This document shows positions 29,861 through 35,137 of a DNA stretch of 64,000 nucleotides, piece after piece; the stretch's first letter is position 1; each line of letters begins with the position of its first letter. A program made the position numbers and the translations under genes. Source of the stretch: Candidatus Omnitrophota bacterium (GTDB lineage Bacteria > Omnitrophota > Gorgyraeia > Gygaellales > Profunditerraquicolaceae). The stretch spans positions 64,043 through 128,042 of the forward strand of contig JAQURX010000005.1 in the NCBI GenBank assembly GCA_028715415.1, in the 5' to 3' direction. The notes under the pieces were generated by a model. The model worked only from the letters and a program-made list of their open reading frames with translations. It searched no databases and was not told where the DNA came from.

Positions 29861-30037
29861 GGATCCCTGCTTTCGCAGGGATGACAAACTATACTCCAAA
29901 TCTTAACTGTTTTTTATGCCATCTAAGCGTCTTTTATGTCATTACCTGAACCTTGTCATTCCCAGAACCTTGTCATTCCCTGAACTTTGTCATTCCCTGA
30001 ACTTTGTCATTCCCGCGAAAGCGGGAATCTACGCTAT
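29861..30037. repeat. Repeat element: hairpin B, 47-bp spacer, four tandem CTTTGTCATTCCCTGAA half-site units, hairpin A
   Basis: ggatccctgctttcgcagggatgacaa ... cttgtcattcccagaaccttgtcattccctgaactttgtcattccctgaactttgtcattcccgcgaaagcgggaatctacgctat. Confidence 0.85.
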
Positions 30038-30328
30038 ATCCTTATATAAATCTCTCCAATGGGAATTTCTTTTCTCAATCAACTCAATCTTCCAAACTCT
30101 TTTCCACTTTTTTATACATTTCTCACGAATAATCGCACTATTGATATCTTCCGCTATTTCATAGTAAACTAAATCGTGGACACGATATTTTTTAGTAAAT
30201 CCTTCAATAATATCATTTTTATGTTCGTATACCCTTAACAACAAATTATTAGTAACCCCAGTATATAACGTACCTTTCTTTCCGCTTGCCATAATATATA
30301 CATAATAACTTTTATCCATATCTGTCAT
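30029..30328 (-). CDS. GIY-YIG nuclease-domain protein (UPF0213-like, ~96-99 aa)
   Basis: YYVYIMASGKKGTLYTGVTNNLLLRVYEHKN = GIY-YIG motif with conserved R and E. Last three codons and TAG lie inside hairpin A; annotated ATG lies inside a TGTCATTCCC half-site, so the true start may be the M at 30319. Confidence 0.75.
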   Translation of the reverse strand: MTDMDKSYYVYIMASGKKGTLYTGVTNNLLLRVYEHKNDIIEGFTKKYRVHDLVYYEIAEDINSAIIREKCIKKWKRVWKIELIEKRNSHWRDLYKDIA

Positions 30329-30425
30329 TCCCGCGCCCTTCTGTCATTCCCGCGCCCTTCTGTCATTCCCGCAAAAGCGGGAATCTACGCTATATAGTGG
30401 ATCCCTGCTTTCGCAGGGATGACAA
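30323..30425. repeat. Repeat element: 3x TGTCATTCCCGCGCCCTTC + hairpin A (GCAAAAGC loop variant) + hairpin B
   Basis: tgtcattcccgcgcccttctgtcattcccgcgcccttctgtcattcccgcaaaagcgggaatctacgctatatagtggatccctgctttcgcagggatgacaag. Confidence 0.85.
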
Positions 30426-30428
30426 GAG

Positions 30429-30941
30429 TTAATTTAACCCAAACCTTGGCTTAGGTGGCTCAGGTGGTGGCTCAAGCAGCTTCTTTATTGCTTCAAAGAT
30501 TACTTGGATATCTGTTTCGTGCAGCTGATACTTTCTTTCTAATTCTTCCAACTTCTCTGCTAATTCTTTATGCGTAAGAAGCAACTCTCGAATTCTTACA
30601 AAAGCCCGCATTATAGCGATATTAACCTGAACCGCTCTTTCAGAATTAAGAACACTTGAAAGCATCGCTACTCCTTCTTGAGTAAAAACATACGGTGTGC
30701 TTGAAGAATGTTTTAATAGCTTAAACCGGTCACAATTTGTGACCAGTTCGTTTTTCTCTTTTTCTGATAAACTAAACATAAAATCTCCTGGGAAACGATT
30801 ACGATTTCTCTTTACTGATTGATTCAATACCTTTGTTCCAATCCCATACAACTCCGCCAAGTCTCTATCCAGCATAACCTTTTTACCTCTTATCACTAAA
30901 ATCTTCGCAGCTACTGCCTCAACAATCAATTCTTTTCCCAT
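30429..30941 (-). CDS. ORF6N-domain (KilA-N-related) DNA-binding protein, paralog 1
   Basis: Start moved to MGKELIV (ATG 30941) with AAGGAGGAAGAAAAT upstream; shares VMLDRDLAELYG...RFP.DFMF...PYVFTEQGVAMLS.VLNS..A.QVNIAIMRAFV..RE.LLTHKELA.KLEELERKY with paralog 2. Confidence 0.65.
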   Translation of the reverse strand: MGKELIVEAVAAKILVIRGKKVMLDRDLAELYGIGTKVLNQSVKRNRNRFPGDFMFSLSEKEKNELVTNCDRFKLLKHSSSTPYVFTQEGVAMLSSVLNSERAVQVNIAIMRAFVRIRELLLTHKELAEKLEELERKYQLHETDIQVIFEAIKKLLEPPPEPPKPRFGLN

Positions 30942-31087
30942 ATTTTCTTCCTCCTTATGCCCAGCAAGGGCACACTGGCGCAAATCCGATAAGCGCCAGG
31001 TGCTACAACAATAGACGAAGAAACTTGCAAAATCTAACACAAAAAAAGCAAAAAAAAGCGGAGAGAATTTCTTCTCTCCGCTAATAT

Positions 31088-31168
31088 TTCATTCCCGCGA
31101 ACGCGGGAATCTACGCTATTTAGTGGATCCCTGCTTTCGCAGGGATGACAACTTCTACAGGGATGACA
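31088..31168. repeat. Repeat element: hairpin A (GCGAACGC variant) + hairpin B + 2x CAGGGATGACA
   Basis: tcattcccgcgaacgcgggaatctacgctatttagtggatccctgctttcgcagggatgacaacttctacagggatgacagttg. Confidence 0.85.
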
Positions 31169-31174
31169 GTTGTA

Positions 31175-31825
31175 TTAAGCTTTCTTTCTTTTAATACGTG
31201 AACCTACAGCTAAAGCTCCACTACCTAACAAAAACAACGCCGAGCTAATTGGCTCTGGAGTTGTTACTACATTTGCATCATGTGAAGGTGGATTAAAATA
31301 CCAGCCGTTTTGATTATTTTCATCAGAGCTTCCATAAGCATCAAAATGGAATTTTAAACCTGAATTAATGAAATCGGTGATTGAAACCGGTATTCCAATC
31401 GTTGTACCAGCAGCTACATCACCAATGGTATATTCTGTCCATTTTGCTGTCCCCTCTGGCCAAAAGATACTATGTGGAGGCAAATAAGTGTGACTTCCTG
31501 TATTAGTAAAGCTGGAATAATAATATGGTGTGGTATTAACAGTTAATTTCCAAGGCTCTGTTGGAGATGAAGTCCCCGGAATAGACAAAACAAGATGTGC
31601 ATCAAAAATAGTAGCGTCGGCAGTATTCTGGAAATTTAGAGTAAAACTCGGATTATGAGTTAGGTCACTTTCTTCTAGCCAAGGGTCACTTGAAATACCG
31701 ACTTCCTCAGCTCCCGGAATACTTAACCAAATCTTAGCCTTACCACCGTTATTATCAGGAGGAGTTGCCCAAGCTGAACCAGCAACAAAAAACAAACATA
31801 CAAGCGTTAAAAATAGTTTTTTCAT
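31175..31825 (-). CDS. PEP-CTERM sorting-domain secreted protein
   Basis: Signal peptide; C-terminus TTPEPISSALFLLGSGALAVGSRIKRKKA (PEP motif, TM helix, basic tail). Confidence 0.7.
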   Translation of the reverse strand: MKKLFLTLVCLFFVAGSAWATPPDNNGGKAKIWLSIPGAEEVGISSDPWLEESDLTHNPSFTLNFQNTADATIFDAHLVLSIPGTSSPTEPWKLTVNTTPYYYSSFTNTGSHTYLPPHSIFWPEGTAKWTEYTIGDVAAGTTIGIPVSITDFINSGLKFHFDAYGSSDENNQNGWYFNPPSHDANVVTTPEPISSALFLLGSGALAVGSRIKRKKA

Positions 31826-32490
31826 CTTACACCTCTTCGTTTTCTTAATCCAACTAATGCGGCTCCGCCTAACAAAAACAACGCACTGCTAATCGGTTCA
31901 GGAGTTGCGGTAATTTTAGTCGTAAAAAATCTCTGGCAATATAAATCATTTCCGCCATTTGTCCAAATCCATTTAGCATTATTATCAATATTAGGATAAT
32001 CTATGTTCCATTTTCCACCATAACCCTGCCCATCATAGGCAAGCTCATCTATAACTCCAAAATTATGAAAATCAAATTGCTCAAGGCGCACTGTCCAATC
32101 AGTTGCGTTGGACAATAAATATTGCGTTCCATTTGCAAACTTAAACCCGCTGCCAGACAATGTAAAATCGCCAATAAAGCCAGCTAAATTAGTTATAGTA
32201 GCAGCACCCAAAACAGTCAAATAATAATCGTGTCCCGGAGTAAGCTGTGTGCTGAAATGAGTTTGAGCGGAATCAGGATCGGGATTAGCGCTTGAACCGC
32301 CGGTTATTAATTGAGCATTCAAGAAATTGGCATCCGTATCATTAATCCAGACGGTAAATTGCCTATCAACAACTACATCCCCTGATAATGTTACTGTAGA
32401 AGCATAAACTGGAGTAAATACGACGAGGGAAATCAATGCAACTAAAAATAATTTAAATTTCATTGGAACCTCTTTGTTTCGGGTTATCAA
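31822..32490 (-). CDS. PEP-CTERM sorting-domain secreted protein
   Basis: C-terminus TATPEPISSALFLLGGAALVGLRKRRGVR. Confidence 0.7.
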   Translation of the reverse strand: MITRNKEVPMKFKLFLVALISLVVFTPVYASTVTLSGDVVVDRQFTVWINDTDANFLNAQLITGGSSANPDPDSAQTHFSTQLTPGHDYYLTVLGAATITNLAGFIGDFTLSGSGFKFANGTQYLLSNATDWTVRLEQFDFHNFGVIDELAYDGQGYGGKWNIDYPNIDNNAKWIWTNGGNDLYCQRFFTTKITATPEPISSALFLLGGAALVGLRKRRGVR

Positions 32491-32618
32491 TTTAGAATTA
32501 CGAAAATCCCGGAAGGATATTTCAACTTTATTATACTAAATCTGACGTACCTGTCAACACTTTTTTAATCTATTTATAAACGAATTTATAAATCAAATTA
32601 GGAAGGAATATCCCTCGC

Positions 32619-32741
32619 TGTCATTCCCGCAGAAGCGGGAATCTACGCTATATAGTGGATCCCTGCTTTCGCAGGGATGACAACTTCTACAGGGATGACA
32701 ACTTCTACAGGGATGACAACTCCTGCAGGGATGACAAATAG
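32619..32741. repeat. Repeat element: hairpin A (GCAGAAGC) + hairpin B + 4 tandem CTTCTACAGGGATGACAA units
   Basis: tgtcattcccgcagaagcgggaatctacgctatatagtggatccctgctttcgcagggatgacaacttctacagggatgacaacttctacagggatgacaactcctgcagggatgacaaatag. Confidence 0.85.
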
Positions 32742-33398
32742 TTAAACCTTCTTTTTTAACCTCACCCCAATCGCCAGCGCCCCGCTTCCTAACAAAAATA
32801 ACGCACTGCTTATCGGCTCAGGCGTAGCTTTAACAGATAAATATGCAGATGGAGGATATTCTAACGATCTAAATGCTACAAAAGGCTGCCCAGGAGCAAG
32901 AATATCCTGCTCCTCTTTCCTTATATTAAAACCAACATAACTTTTACCAGAGCTAATTAAATCATGAACAACAGAAGTAACATCATAATTAAGCGTAGAT
33001 TGATCATTGAATGTAATTGAACCAATGATGTTGCCGCGGGCGTAATCATCAAAGTCTAAGTATCCATCGCCAGCATAAGAATAGATACCTAACGTGTATG
33101 GAAAAGGCCCAAGGCACTCTTCAACCGTTAAATTCAGGCTTGCAGCAATAAATGAATTTTCAATACTTGAAAGAGGAAATTCAAAAAGCGCTCGTGAAGC
33201 AGAACCATTCATATTCATTGCCTGCGGATAACCAGTTGAATTTATATAATCCCCTTGCCCGTCAAACAGATTTGGATATTTACCATCAAAAACAGTTCCA
33301 TCAACCACTGGCGAAACATCAAAAGCCTGTGCATGCAATATAGGTAAAAATATTAAACTACAAAATAATACTGCTATATTTAGAATTCTTGAATTCAT
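32742..33398 (-). CDS. PEP-CTERM sorting-domain secreted protein
   Basis: C-terminus KATPEPISSALFLLGSGALAIGVRLKKKV. Confidence 0.7.
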   Translation of the reverse strand: MNSRILNIAVLFCSLIFLPILHAQAFDVSPVVDGTVFDGKYPNLFDGQGDYINSTGYPQAMNMNGSASRALFEFPLSSIENSFIAASLNLTVEECLGPFPYTLGIYSYAGDGYLDFDDYARGNIIGSITFNDQSTLNYDVTSVVHDLISSGKSYVGFNIRKEEQDILAPGQPFVAFRSLEYPPSAYLSVKATPEPISSALFLLGSGALAIGVRLKKKV

Positions 33399-33400
33399 AT

Positions 33401-34243
33401 TTATCCTTGTTTTCTTTTTCGTAATTTACGCGCTGCAAACAATCCGCTTCCCAATAAAAATAACGCACTGCTTACCGGCTCGGGAGTAACTGAAACATTA
33501 AAATTATCAAAATAAGCTTTACTTGTTCCACCTTCCAAACCAAAACCTGCGCCGAAAGTTTCTGCGGCAAGTAAAATCTTAAAGTCAGTTATATCCGGAT
33601 ATTGCACCTTAAAATCAGTTACTGTATCTTGGACCAAATCACCTTCTTGATCAACAATAGTATTCCCCGAAAGATCAGTAATCCTCATTGTTAAAGTTCC
33701 ACTTCCAGAAGCATCATAATCATACCAAATAGTGCCATCCGTTTCACTTCCTAATCTGGGATAAAGATAACCATTTCCGCTTCCACCTTCTAAAATATAA
33801 TTAGCAAATGTAGTCTGGCCTTTATTTACTTCTGGCCCGGCGCAGAAAATATATGCAGGACTTTCTAAATCACTCGGCCAAAATGCCAGCCCCATCCACA
33901 AATCGCTATCTTTGGTTGTCAAGGGGTTAAAATGAAAATCAGTTCTTGCCGAGAAATTATTATCTAATCCAAATGAAGACTGAGACCTTATCAATGACAA
34001 AGCAGTCTCGTATGTCTTGCTCCAGCCATTTTCATAGCCCGAAGGATTGACGAATTCAAAATGTCCATTTTGATCAACAGAATACAATCTCTCAGGTGTG
34101 CTCCCGCCGTAAAAACCATCCTCCCAAACCGCGGAATTAAAGAGATTATCATTAAAATCATCCGACCAGCCGCTTGTTGCCATTGCCGTTGCAGGTAAAA
34201 CAAATAAACCGCACAATATTAAACCAAAAACAAATCTTTTCAC
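33401..34243 (-). CDS. PEP-CTERM sorting-domain secreted protein
   Basis: C-terminus SVTPEPVSSALFLLGSGLFAARKLRKRKQG. Confidence 0.7.
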   Translation of the reverse strand: MKRFVFGLILCGLFVLPATAMATSGWSDDFNDNLFNSAVWEDGFYGGSTPERLYSVDQNGHFEFVNPSGYENGWSKTYETALSLIRSQSSFGLDNNFSARTDFHFNPLTTKDSDLWMGLAFWPSDLESPAYIFCAGPEVNKGQTTFANYILEGGSGNGYLYPRLGSETDGTIWYDYDASGSGTLTMRITDLSGNTIVDQEGDLVQDTVTDFKVQYPDITDFKILLAAETFGAGFGLEGGTSKAYFDNFNVSVTPEPVSSALFLLGSGLFAARKLRKRKQG

Positions 34244-34344
34244 TGTTCCTCCCTTAGTTGATTGAAAAAGTATTTATAAAGTTTTTTAATAATTCAAAAG
34301 TTATTATAAGAATTTACTGCTCAGTGTCAAGAAAATATTTTTTT

Positions 34345-34410
34345 CTGTCATTCCCGCACCCTTCTGTCATTCCTGCATCCCATCTGTCATTCCCGCGAAA
34401 GCGGGAATCC
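34345..34410. repeat. Repeat element: 2 degenerate half-sites + hairpin A (no B partner)
   Basis: tgtcattcccgcacccttctgtcattcctgcatcccatctgtcattcccgcgaaagcgggaatcc. Confidence 0.8.
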
Positions 34411-34434
34411 ATCTTGAAGTCACAATTTGTGACC

Positions 34435-34989
34435 TCAAGAATGAAACCCTATCTTAGGCTTCTCTGGTACCGAAGACGTAGTCATAAGCTGCTTGATAAC
34501 CTCGAGTATCATCTGAACATCTTTCTCGTGTAAGTTATACTTTCTCTCTAGTTCTTCAAGCTTTTGCGCTAATTCTTTGTGTGTCAATAAAAACTCCCGC
34601 AGCTTAACAAATGCACGCATAATCGCAATATTAACCTGAATAGCCTTATCTGAATTTAATACAGTAGAAAGCATTGCCACACCCTGCTCAGTAAATACAT
34701 AAGGAAGATATTTGATATTTCTCCCTCTTGTTATTGTAATAACTTCTTTATCTTCAATATGTTCGTTCAAGGTCGCAATTTGCGACCTTGAAACTCCTAC
34801 CTCCTCTTTATTCAACTGGAACATAAAATCTGCTGGGAATCTTTTTGCATTTCTTTTTACCTGCTCATTAAGTCTTTTTACCGACACCCCATACAACTCC
34901 GCCAAGTCCCTATCCAGCATCACTTTTCTTCCTCGTATAAACAGAATCTTTGTCGCCACCACCTCTGCACTAACTATGTCTTTTGTCAT
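34435..34989 (-). CDS. ORF6N-domain (KilA-N-related) DNA-binding protein, paralog 2
   Basis: 184 aa; GGAGG SD upstream of ATG at 34989; ORF6N core conserved with paralog 1. Confidence 0.65.
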   Translation of the reverse strand: MTKDIVSAEVVATKILFIRGRKVMLDRDLAELYGVSVKRLNEQVKRNAKRFPADFMFQLNKEEVGVSRSQIATLNEHIEDKEVITITRGRNIKYLPYVFTEQGVAMLSTVLNSDKAIQVNIAIMRAFVKLREFLLTHKELAQKLEELERKYNLHEKDVQMILEVIKQLMTTSSVPEKPKIGFHS

Positions 34990-35067
34990 AATAATTCCTC
35001 CTTATACACCAATAGACGTAAAAACAACCAAAATCTAACTAACTTTTTTATGAAGGGACTGGTCCCG

Positions 35068-35137
35068 ACTGTCATTCCCGCCCCTTCTGTCATTCCCGCC
35101 CCTTCTGTCATTCCCGCGAAAGCGGGAATCTACGCTA
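35068..35137. repeat. Repeat element: 2x TGTCATTCCCGCCCCTTC + hairpin A
   Basis: tgtcattcccgccccttctgtcattcccgccccttctgtcattcccgcgaaagcgggaatctacgctattt. Confidence 0.85.

Follow-up and report, generated by a model that had tools for sequence, protein, structure and literature searches.

A palindrome inside ORF6N genes is conserved as nucleotide symmetry and is translated into the signature peptide of the family

The stretch of DNA analysed here, 64,000 nucleotides (nt) from Candidatus Omnitrophota (assembly GCA_028715415.1, contig JAQURX010000005.1, positions 64,043-128,042; hereafter the window), contains two genes of the ORF6N family, paralog 1 and paralog 2, and three copies of a palindrome, two of which lie inside these genes while the third overlaps the end of paralog 2. 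Comparison with homologs from many phyla shows that the nucleotide symmetry of the palindrome is the conserved property, and that the peptide encoded by it, in either of two reading frames, is largely a by-product. The genes, with their lengths in amino acids (aa) and their E-values against the Pfam profile PF10543, and the palindromes, located directly in the sequence, are as follows.

30429-30941, minus strand: ORF6N paralog 1, 170 aa, identical to P0121; ATG at 30941-30939; PF10543, E=9e-30
34435-34989, minus strand: ORF6N paralog 2, 184 aa, identical to P0001; PF10543, E=6e-33
30724-30748, in paralog 1: palindrome copy 1, with one mismatch; perfect 8+1+8 core GGTCACAATTTGTGACC at 30728-30744, centre 30736; arms GGTCACAA-T-TTGTGACC; about 205 nt past the start codon, VTNCD frame
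34766-34792, in paralog 2: palindrome copy 2, perfect 13+1+13, TTCAAGGTCGCAA-T-TTGCGACCTTGAA, centre 34779
34412-34440, mostly non-coding: palindrome copy 3, 14+1+14 with one mismatch, the 29-mer TCTTGAAGTCACAATTTGTGACCTCAAGA

Both proteins match the 86-position Pfam ORF6N profile over its full length, with 103.2 and 113.4 bits against a gathering cut-off of 27.8. They are 57% identical to each other, and both show a 100% match to annotated Candidatus Omnitrophica proteins. In the AlphaFold models a compact N-terminal domain, with a predicted local distance difference test score (pLDDT) of 87.9, is followed by a long helix. The residues encoded by the palindrome form the least confident and most variable part of the domain, and in paralog 2 a disordered insert follows them. 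A solved structure related by sequence to the ORF6N proteins was not found. The predicted ORF6N product is likely a dimeric winged-helix DNA-binding protein with a coiled coil.

The three palindromes had been reported in an earlier reading of the window made without database searches (the sequence-only reading), and all of them are present. No match to the 17-mer at up to two mismatches occurs in 100 dinucleotide-preserving shuffles of the window, and a looser search with a 13-mer and two mismatches yields just two further matches in the window, which is chance level. Copy 3 had been placed at 34411-34439, one position off. For copy 2 the position 34768-34790, where CAAGGTCGCAATTTGCGACCTTG lies, is correct, but the perfect palindrome is longer than had been thought. 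The two intragenic copies occupy homologous positions, as had been proposed, with copy 2 about 210 nt past its start codon, and the complementary difference between them, A/G on one arm and T/C on the other, is confirmed. Copy 1 is read as G GTC ACA AAT TGT GAC C, giving VTNCD (...NELVTNCDRFK...), and copy 2 as AGG TCG CAA ATT GCG ACC, giving RSQIAT (...VSRSQIATLN...); the peptides differ because the copies are read in different frames. The mismatch in the extension of copy 1, C.A on the plus strand, is U.G on the gene strand, and that of copy 3, A.C on the plus strand, is G.U on the gene strand. Copy 3 spans the TGA with which paralog 2 ends (34435-34437) and adjoins a repetitive extragenic palindrome (REP)-like repeat at 34386-34409; a consensus promoter of the next gene follows about 80 nt farther downstream. 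It matches a family unit within locus L012 (TCTTGAAGTCACAATTTGTGACTTCAAGA) and is a member of the class of copies situated at most 150 nt past ORF6N stop codons. As gene-strand RNA the copies fold with -16.6 kcal/mol (copy 1, z=-5.2), -18.5 kcal/mol (copy 2, z=-5.7) and -20.4 kcal/mol (copy 3).

The family consensus is a palindrome of about 27 base pairs, 13+1+13, with the sequence TTYRAGGTCRCAA-W-TTGYGACCTYRAA, located about 210 nt into ORF6N genes. Homologous DNA was collected from species-representative genomes (Omnitrophota, Planctomycetota, Verrucomicrobiota, Nitrospirota, Bacteroidota, Pseudomonadota, Patescibacteria, Acidobacteriota and others), from viral contigs and from metagenomes, and the protein searches each returned at least 8000 matches, from bacteria, plasmids and phages. 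Between the anchors DFMF and PYxFTE these proteins carry one, two or three tandem units of the motif L-R/K-S-Q-x-V/A-T; in one subfamily E-L/V-V-T/A-N/I-C-D stands in its place. For each segment the best perfect hairpin was compared with those of 200 synonymous-codon resamplings of the same peptide. Over 103 non-redundant segments from many phyla the mean best perfect stem measures 10.0 nt, against 4.5 nt after resampling. Perfect stems of 9-16 nt are present in 61 of the 103 segments, and in 59 of these the observed stem is reached by none of the 200 resamples (in the remaining two, by 1 and 5 of 200). Arms extend up to 16 nt, and the longest palindrome, CCAACTTGAAGTCACAAACTGTGACTTCAAGTTGG, encodes A-N-L-K-S-Q-T-V-T-S-S-W. 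The ORF6N signature peptide, L-R/K-S-Q-I/F-V/A-T-S, is the translation of the palindrome.

The same constraint is seen in the choice of codons on opposite arms, for which instances were selected by their peptide pattern only. In the RSQ frame, the serine codon covaries with the valine or alanine codon (TCA-GTG 89, TCG-GCG 41, discordant 2; Fisher p=4e-32) and the phenylalanine or cysteine codon with the glycine codon (TTC-GGA 28, TGC-GGC 10, discordant 3; p=3e-7). In the VTNCD frame the threonine or alanine codon covaries with the cysteine codon without a discordant case (ACA-TGT 15, GCA-TGC 11, discordant 0; p=1e-7). In an alignment of 138 units 87.8% of the cells are paired, compared with 71.0% after shuffling, and the observed value is reached in 0 of 500 shuffles; double-sided changes number 377 where 132 are expected, and pairing falls to 29-44% when one partner is slid. 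These pair counts only corroborate the result, because the units were chosen as largely paired, and the unbiased evidence consists of stem resampling and codon covariation. Pairing is strong to 13 positions off the centre, drops to about 47-49% at positions 14-15 and is at background farther out, while only the stem positions k=2, 3, 6, 9 and 12 are broadly conserved in sequence.

A corresponding picture is obtained from 90 moderately diverged pairs of close relatives, which are dominated by one gut-virus cluster and hence not independent. Divergence at third codon positions is 0.00-0.13 within the palindrome and 0.3-0.5 in the flanks, and overall divergence is 0.031 inside and 0.135 outside; synonymous sites within the palindrome are conserved about tenfold more strongly than those of the flanks. 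Among these relatives the stem as a whole is frozen, with 2 double changes in 90 pairs.

Over larger distances the sequence of the stem drifts. The palindrome is kept at one fixed position in at least 10 phyla, down to 33% protein identity, and its peptide tolerates two frames, one to three copies and the swaps S-V, S-A, F-G, C-G and K-S. In Treponema the stem is altered with its symmetry intact, GGTCGAAA.A.TTTCGACC, and is read as RSKIST; in Legionella geestiana the same stem is read in the other frame, as VENFD; and on a Segatella plasmid a further stem, GAGGTTATCAAA.AAA.TTTGATAACCTC, again symmetrical, is read as VIKKFDN. These cases come from cultured organisms and from homologs of only about 33% identity. 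On the Segatella copri plasmid NZ_CP152486.1 (L415, 4140 bp) the replication initiator and ORF6N are the sole annotated genes. The proposal of the sequence-only reading that selection acts on the nucleic acid and not on the peptide is therefore strongly supported across the family by stem resampling, codon covariation and pair counts, and the comparison of orthologs suggested there bears it out: homologs carry the symmetry beyond what synonymous choice would give. Chance, or conservation of a peptide whose codons happen to be self-complementary, could appeal to the fact that S-Q-I/F-V-T is inherently half-palindromic, three of the six core pairs being fixed by the genetic code. This explanation is refuted by the excess in stem length, the covariation of codons between arms, the second frame and the non-coding copies, and its probability is negligible.

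The location of the palindromes was surveyed in 1.28 Mb around 266 ORF6N genes, which contain 260 non-redundant family palindromes. As many as 212 lie inside the coding sequence, at a median of +210 nt (interquartile range 207-210), 26 lie at most 150 nt upstream of a start codon, in clusters near -60 and at -28 to -34, 13 lie at most 150 nt past a stop codon, and 9 are farther away. In these cellular loci 251 of the 260 palindromes (97%) are thus within an ORF6N gene or no more than 150 nt from one. The upstream copies finish just 5' of the Shine-Dalgarno sequence, and the downstream copies are found 12-90 nt past the stop codon. Tandem arrays occur in the flanks (L001 at -59 and -28; L194 at +21, +55 and +85), like the one to three tandem units of the coding sequence. 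For about 30 of 43 flanking copies no ORF6N homology exists on the far side, and about 85% of ORF6N genes are without a flanking copy. None of the surveyed loci has palindromes on both sides of the ORF6N gene. Apparent insertions at the palindrome, suggested by over-long tblastn matches, proved to be adjacent gene fragments.

Whether the symmetry is maintained in DNA or in RNA is indicated by the mismatches between the arms and by the centre. On the sense strand, coding copies show 26 G.T, 43 A.C and 83 other mismatches, upstream copies 7, 7 and 6, and downstream copies 5, 2 and 8, so that the flanking copies together have 12 G.T, 9 A.C and 14 other. This spectrum is that of random point mutation, not that of a selected RNA helix rich in G.U pairs. 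The test is able to detect selection on RNA, because in terminator-like phage copies of the 17-mer, used as a positive control, 10 of 10 discordant R/Y sites are G.U when read on the T-run strand. The centre of the palindrome is A in 74 cases, T in 64 and G in 1; it differs in 42 of the 90 close pairs, and all 42 differences are A<->T flips. Centres of 3 nt occur in both orientations (AAA 14 and TTT 7; A[AT]C 12 and G[AT]T 6), and the element is therefore without strand polarity. With no preference for G.U and with both orientations of the centre, the constraint looks DNA-level rather than RNA-level.

A structured RNA element, which had been among the possibilities raised earlier, is accordingly not favoured. 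In its most developed form this alternative holds that an mRNA hairpin, in the leader, around +210 and at the 3' end, serves stability, processing (for example by RNase III) or translation, that it is possibly bound by ORF6N, and that template switching in the DNA erases G.U intermediates; template switching can indeed keep RNA hairpins perfectly paired (PMC8794818). The stable folds of the window copies, with z-scores of about -5 to -6, agree with such a role, as do the mismatches of copies 1 and 3, which are G.U on the gene strand, and the use of an identical 17-mer as an RNA terminator hairpin in phages. The positions of the flanking copies, directly 5' of the Shine-Dalgarno sequence or shortly past the stop codon, fit equally well, and in Butyrivibrio the palindrome falls in a leader, given that the best promoter-like site lies about 80 nt farther upstream. 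However, G.U is not in excess over A.C in coding, upstream or downstream copies, unlike in the terminator class, the loop is free in orientation (AAA/UUU, AUC/GAU), and pairing is kept up to a 1-nt centre, which is unusable as an RNA loop. Rfam 15, searched in E-value mode, gives chance-level matches only (E=0.1-0.7, far under the gathering scores). No T-run follows the three window copies on the gene (minus) strand, as an intrinsic terminator would have; in a terminator scan copy 1 alone is flagged, and this on the antisense strand with a weak tail. The mRNA hairpin is considered unlikely.

The phage copies used as a control came from a DNA-only scan of viral contigs for the 17-mer GGTCRCAAWTTGYGACC, which occurs in at least 76 context clusters after de-replication by flanks, compared with 37 and 8 stretches (23 and 7 clusters) for two composition-matched control palindromes. 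Among the matches listed, 21 of 109 distinct contexts are in or beside ORF6N genes. At least 36 clusters are intrinsic-terminator-like, against 5 and 3 for the controls. Examples are found in contigs L241-L360 (L278 at about 10730, L305 at about 5426 and L257 at about 7135), where the hairpin is flanked by A- and T-runs, as in AAAAAGAGGTCGCAAATTGCGACCTCTTTTT, and the fetched stretch contains no ORF6N.

In 80 genome loci, examined over 4 kb on either side, no gene family other than ORF6N recurs near ORF6N; the gene is solitary, and its own product is therefore the only consistently linked protein. The palindrome is tentatively explained, with confidence short of even, as a dyad site bound by the ORF6N protein itself, the symmetry of which is kept by template switching. 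An operator for autoregulation is the most plausible functional reading, in view of the predicted winged helix and coiled coil, the solitary gene and the copies that precede ribosome-binding sites. According to this model a putative dimeric winged-helix ORF6N protein would bind the dyad site of its own gene, and binding would establish a self-contained negative feedback that travels with the gene, which is solitary and horizontally mobile. The internal copy would serve as a roadblock and copies near the ribosome-binding site as operators. During replication, hairpin-templated copying from arm to arm, i.e. template switching, would keep the symmetry at variable positions and flip the A/T centre. 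Template switching is documented to homogenise the arms of inverted repeats and to invert their spacers (PMC8794818, PMC8604942, PMC7202029). The corresponding marks are found here, namely perfect arms, A<->T flips and both orientations of the centre, and arm perfection and centre flips are consistent with this process; the symmetry is less likely to have arisen by point mutations that compensated each other independently.

Several observations weigh against binding by the ORF6N protein. Instead of being at the promoter, the universal copy lies about 210 nt into the gene; an upstream copy is present in only about 10% of the genes, and the window genes have none. On the Segatella plasmid L415 a single palindrome (centre 936) lies within ORF6N and none near rep. 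A few flanking copies (L218, L235) sit in ORF6N gene fragments, and some flanking copies may for this reason be relics rather than operators. The terminator-like 17-mers of phages without a nearby ORF6N are not explained by autoregulation. Furthermore, the half-site sharing that would mark operators of one protein is not seen: a flanking copy agrees with the internal copy of its own gene at 7.78 of 13 positions and with those of other loci at 7.75, and the observed agreement is reached in 928 of 2000 permutations of the flanking/internal matching. Because copies within a locus are not more alike, a sequence-specific protein cannot read the variable positions, and perfect symmetry at positions that are not read requires the assumption of template switching, or a hairpin or cruciform. 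Recognition specific to a locus or paralog was considered and is absent overall, identical arms being found only in L066, L408 and L409. An ORF6N regulon in annotated phages was likewise considered and rejected: only 5 weak records were obtained, and L406 and L407, the contigs examined over their full length, contain no free-standing copy.

A broader formulation, possible though doubtful, is that ORF6N genes carry an ancient, portable, in-frame cis DNA site, putatively bound by the dimer as a duplex or as an extruded hairpin for self-control; the signature peptide would be its shadow, and the symmetry would be kept by hairpin-templated repair.

Template switching might also suffice without any binder. 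A quasi-palindromic ancestral stretch could have been perfected and extended by it into a functionless, self-perpetuating palindrome, with the flanking copies as relics of decayed fragments. Published work describes how perfect inverted repeats arise, lengthen and persist through template switching, in coding DNA as well (PMC8794818, PMC8604942, PMC13100816). Any third codon position is paired with a second position of the other arm, and the geometry allows such an origin, since synonymous sites all face non-synonymous ones across the stem; purifying selection on the protein together with fast arm conversion would then freeze the synonymous sites. A mismatch spectrum like that of random mutation, not of structure-tolerant wobble, agrees with this, and the exclusively A<->T changes of the centre, with both 3-nt orientations, are the signature of spacer inversion. 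Some flanking copies in gene fragments and the local tandem multiplication in both coding sequence (one to three units) and flanks agree with this origin as well. The position, however, is fixed over at least 10 phyla and to 33% identity although the peptide sequence is dispensable, the roughly 30 of 43 flanking copies without a trace of ORF6N are clustered just before the ribosome-binding site or shortly past the stop codon, and the stem is frozen in close relatives although the family tolerates many stems. A palindrome devoid of function is the main rival to the binding model and is regarded as rather doubtful.

The sequence-only reading had also proposed a recombination or resolution site. 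In that case the palindrome would serve recombination, integration or mobility as a DNA hairpin or cruciform, by exchange of ORF6N halves or by insertion of cassettes at resident palindromes. Perfect symmetry and an A/T-rich centre are ideal for extrusion, and ORF6N genes are multi-copy and horizontally mobile, being carried by plasmids, phages and integrative modules. Some complete genes are immediately preceded by a truncated ORF6N fragment whose end is at a palindrome or just past it (L235 1501-2158, L051 3-695, L218 about 2400-2590); in L235 the gap between the fragment and the complete ORF6N gene is 5 nt. Nevertheless, in mosaic pairs such as L111/L139 and L106/L138 from gut viral contigs the switch in identity, counted from the centre of the palindrome, falls at about +130 to +150 nt. 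These pairs are 90-100% identical over the N-terminal domain and then have 20-40% DNA identity from the C-terminal coiled coil onwards, a pattern which points to module exchange at the domain boundary. The breakpoints thus fall about 130-150 nt to the 3' side of the palindrome, a consistent link to a recombinase, transposase or nuclease is absent, and no locus has copies flanking the gene on both sides, as insertion would leave. A role in mobility is very unlikely.

Next to paralog 1 of the window, a 99-aa open reading frame with a GIY-YIG nuclease domain (30029-30328, minus strand, Pfam E=1.6e-13) is bordered by REP-like repeats on both sides; as a conserved partner it was rejected, since no GIY-YIG gene stands beside ORF6N in other loci. 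In L410 (Treponema saccharophilum pTS1, 1-1513) ORF6N lies within a type I restriction-modification operon, between a methyltransferase with a small winged-helix regulator and the S subunit. The gut phage contig L406 (MT835728.1, 8000-8630, minus strand) has an ORF6N gene that is intact except for an in-frame stop, EET*NWKSQ where homologs have EETQNWKSQ, which suggests stop-codon reassignment. The two genes of L406 that seemed split at the palindrome were dismissed as such, one having this probably recoded stop and the other being a decayed copy.

Comparison with known systems reveals partial similarities only. The half-sites TCACA/TGTGA had been likened to those of CRP and FNR. CRP recognizes TGTGA-N6-TCACA and FNR recognizes TTGAT-N4-ATCAA; TCACA-AWT-TGTGA has the opposite order of half-sites and a 3-nt spacing, and many family members have GCGA, GGAA or GGCA instead, so that the likeness is a resemblance only. 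The parS site inside the coding sequence of parB/spo0J and the pac sites inside small-terminase genes are likewise palindromic sites within the gene of a DNA-binding protein (for ORF6N, the presumed binder), and such a placement keeps site and binder genetically linked. In parS, however, the sequence is conserved and the arms show no covariation, whereas in ORF6N the stem drifts with its symmetry kept, two frames are used and binding is putative. Intragenic auxiliary operators or roadblocks, such as lacO2 in lacZ and the gal OI operator in galE, similarly consist of a dyad site downstream of the start with optional sites at promoter or ribosome-binding site; there the promoter-proximal operator is primary, whereas in ORF6N the intragenic copy is universal.

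Among repeats, the Rickettsia palindromic element (RPE) and REP or bacterial interspersed mosaic elements (BIME) are short palindromic DNAs that can insert a peptide in frame, vary in copy number and form tandem clusters. Within one genome they are scattered over many unrelated genes and intergenic spaces, in contrast to the ORF6N palindromes, 97% of which in cellular loci are tied to ORF6N (in viral contigs the bare 17-mer does occur elsewhere); in the window, too, the three copies are all in or touching ORF6N genes, unlike dispersed repeats of the REP/BIME, RPE or miniature inverted-repeat transposable element (MITE) kind. RNA structures of coding regions and intrinsic terminators share the stable stem-loop in or at the end of an open reading frame, but the ORF6N-linked copies are without G.U tolerance, T-run or Rfam match and have an orientation-free loop. 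Quasipalindromes made by template switching also have perfect arms, double changes, spacer inversion (A<->T, AAA<->TTT) and local expansion (PMC7202029, PMC8794818, PMC8604942); these are generic scattered events, whereas the ORF6N palindrome occupies one position in one family across many phyla, with extra copies at gene boundaries. The ORF6N palindrome combines features of parS/pac sites, intragenic operators, RPE and template-switch repeats and is a member of none of these classes. In the literature searched, no earlier account of this element was found: the papers that name ORF6N do not mention a palindrome, none connects KilA-N with a palindrome and operator, and the core palindrome sequences themselves return only a spurious CRISPR-finder entry.

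Further features of the window around the paralogs are the following.

31009-31039, minus strand: shared upstream motif of paralog 1, plus-strand sequence CAATAGACGAAGAAACTTGCAAAATCTAACA, without the palindrome
35010-35040, minus strand: shared upstream motif of paralog 2, plus-strand sequence CAATAGACGTAAAAACAACCAAAATCTAACT
30006-30029, 30362-30385, 31088-31111, 32620-32643, 34386-34409 and 35107-35130: REP-like repeats near the paralogs

The two upstream motifs are identical at about 25 of 31 positions and are possibly, judged by this likeness, the promoter of paralogs 1 and 2; a sigma-70 scan did not pick up the motif at 31009-31039. Just upstream of the promoter region of paralog 1 lies a bidirectional terminator-like hairpin at 31057-31082 (AGCGGAGAGAA...TTCTCTCCGCT, then T8 on the minus strand). 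Two REP-like hairpin repeats, GTCATTCCCGCGAAAGCGGGAATC with 12 copies and GGATCCCTGCTTTCGCAGGGATGACA with 8 copies, fill intergenic spaces between 11395 and 56230, often with short tandem CTGTCATTCCCGC or CAGGGATGACAA units; this repeat family is unrelated to the ORF6N palindrome. Between the paralogs four consecutive genes (31175-34243, minus strand) encode secreted proteins with a PEP-CTERM-like C-terminal sorting signal (...TPEPISSALFLLGSGALA...RKKA), and perfect 12/12 sigma-70-type promoters are present at 34330-34303 and 32557-32530.

For the ORF6N family these results mean that what databases list as a conserved peptide in this very large family is the read-out of a DNA palindrome, and that alignments and profile models of ORF6N need a different reading. 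The palindrome is a clean natural example of a nucleotide constraint that overrides codon choice and reading frame, and possibly a natural showcase for the maintenance of palindromes by template switching over deep time. If the portable in-frame site is real, a nucleic-acid signal, and not a protein, would dictate a conserved "protein motif", with one element serving two frames. The palindrome also provides a handle on the function of the ORF6N protein, for which cultured hosts exist, carrying it on a Legionella pneumophila plasmid, on pCY186 of Butyrivibrio proteoclasticus and in Bacteroides.

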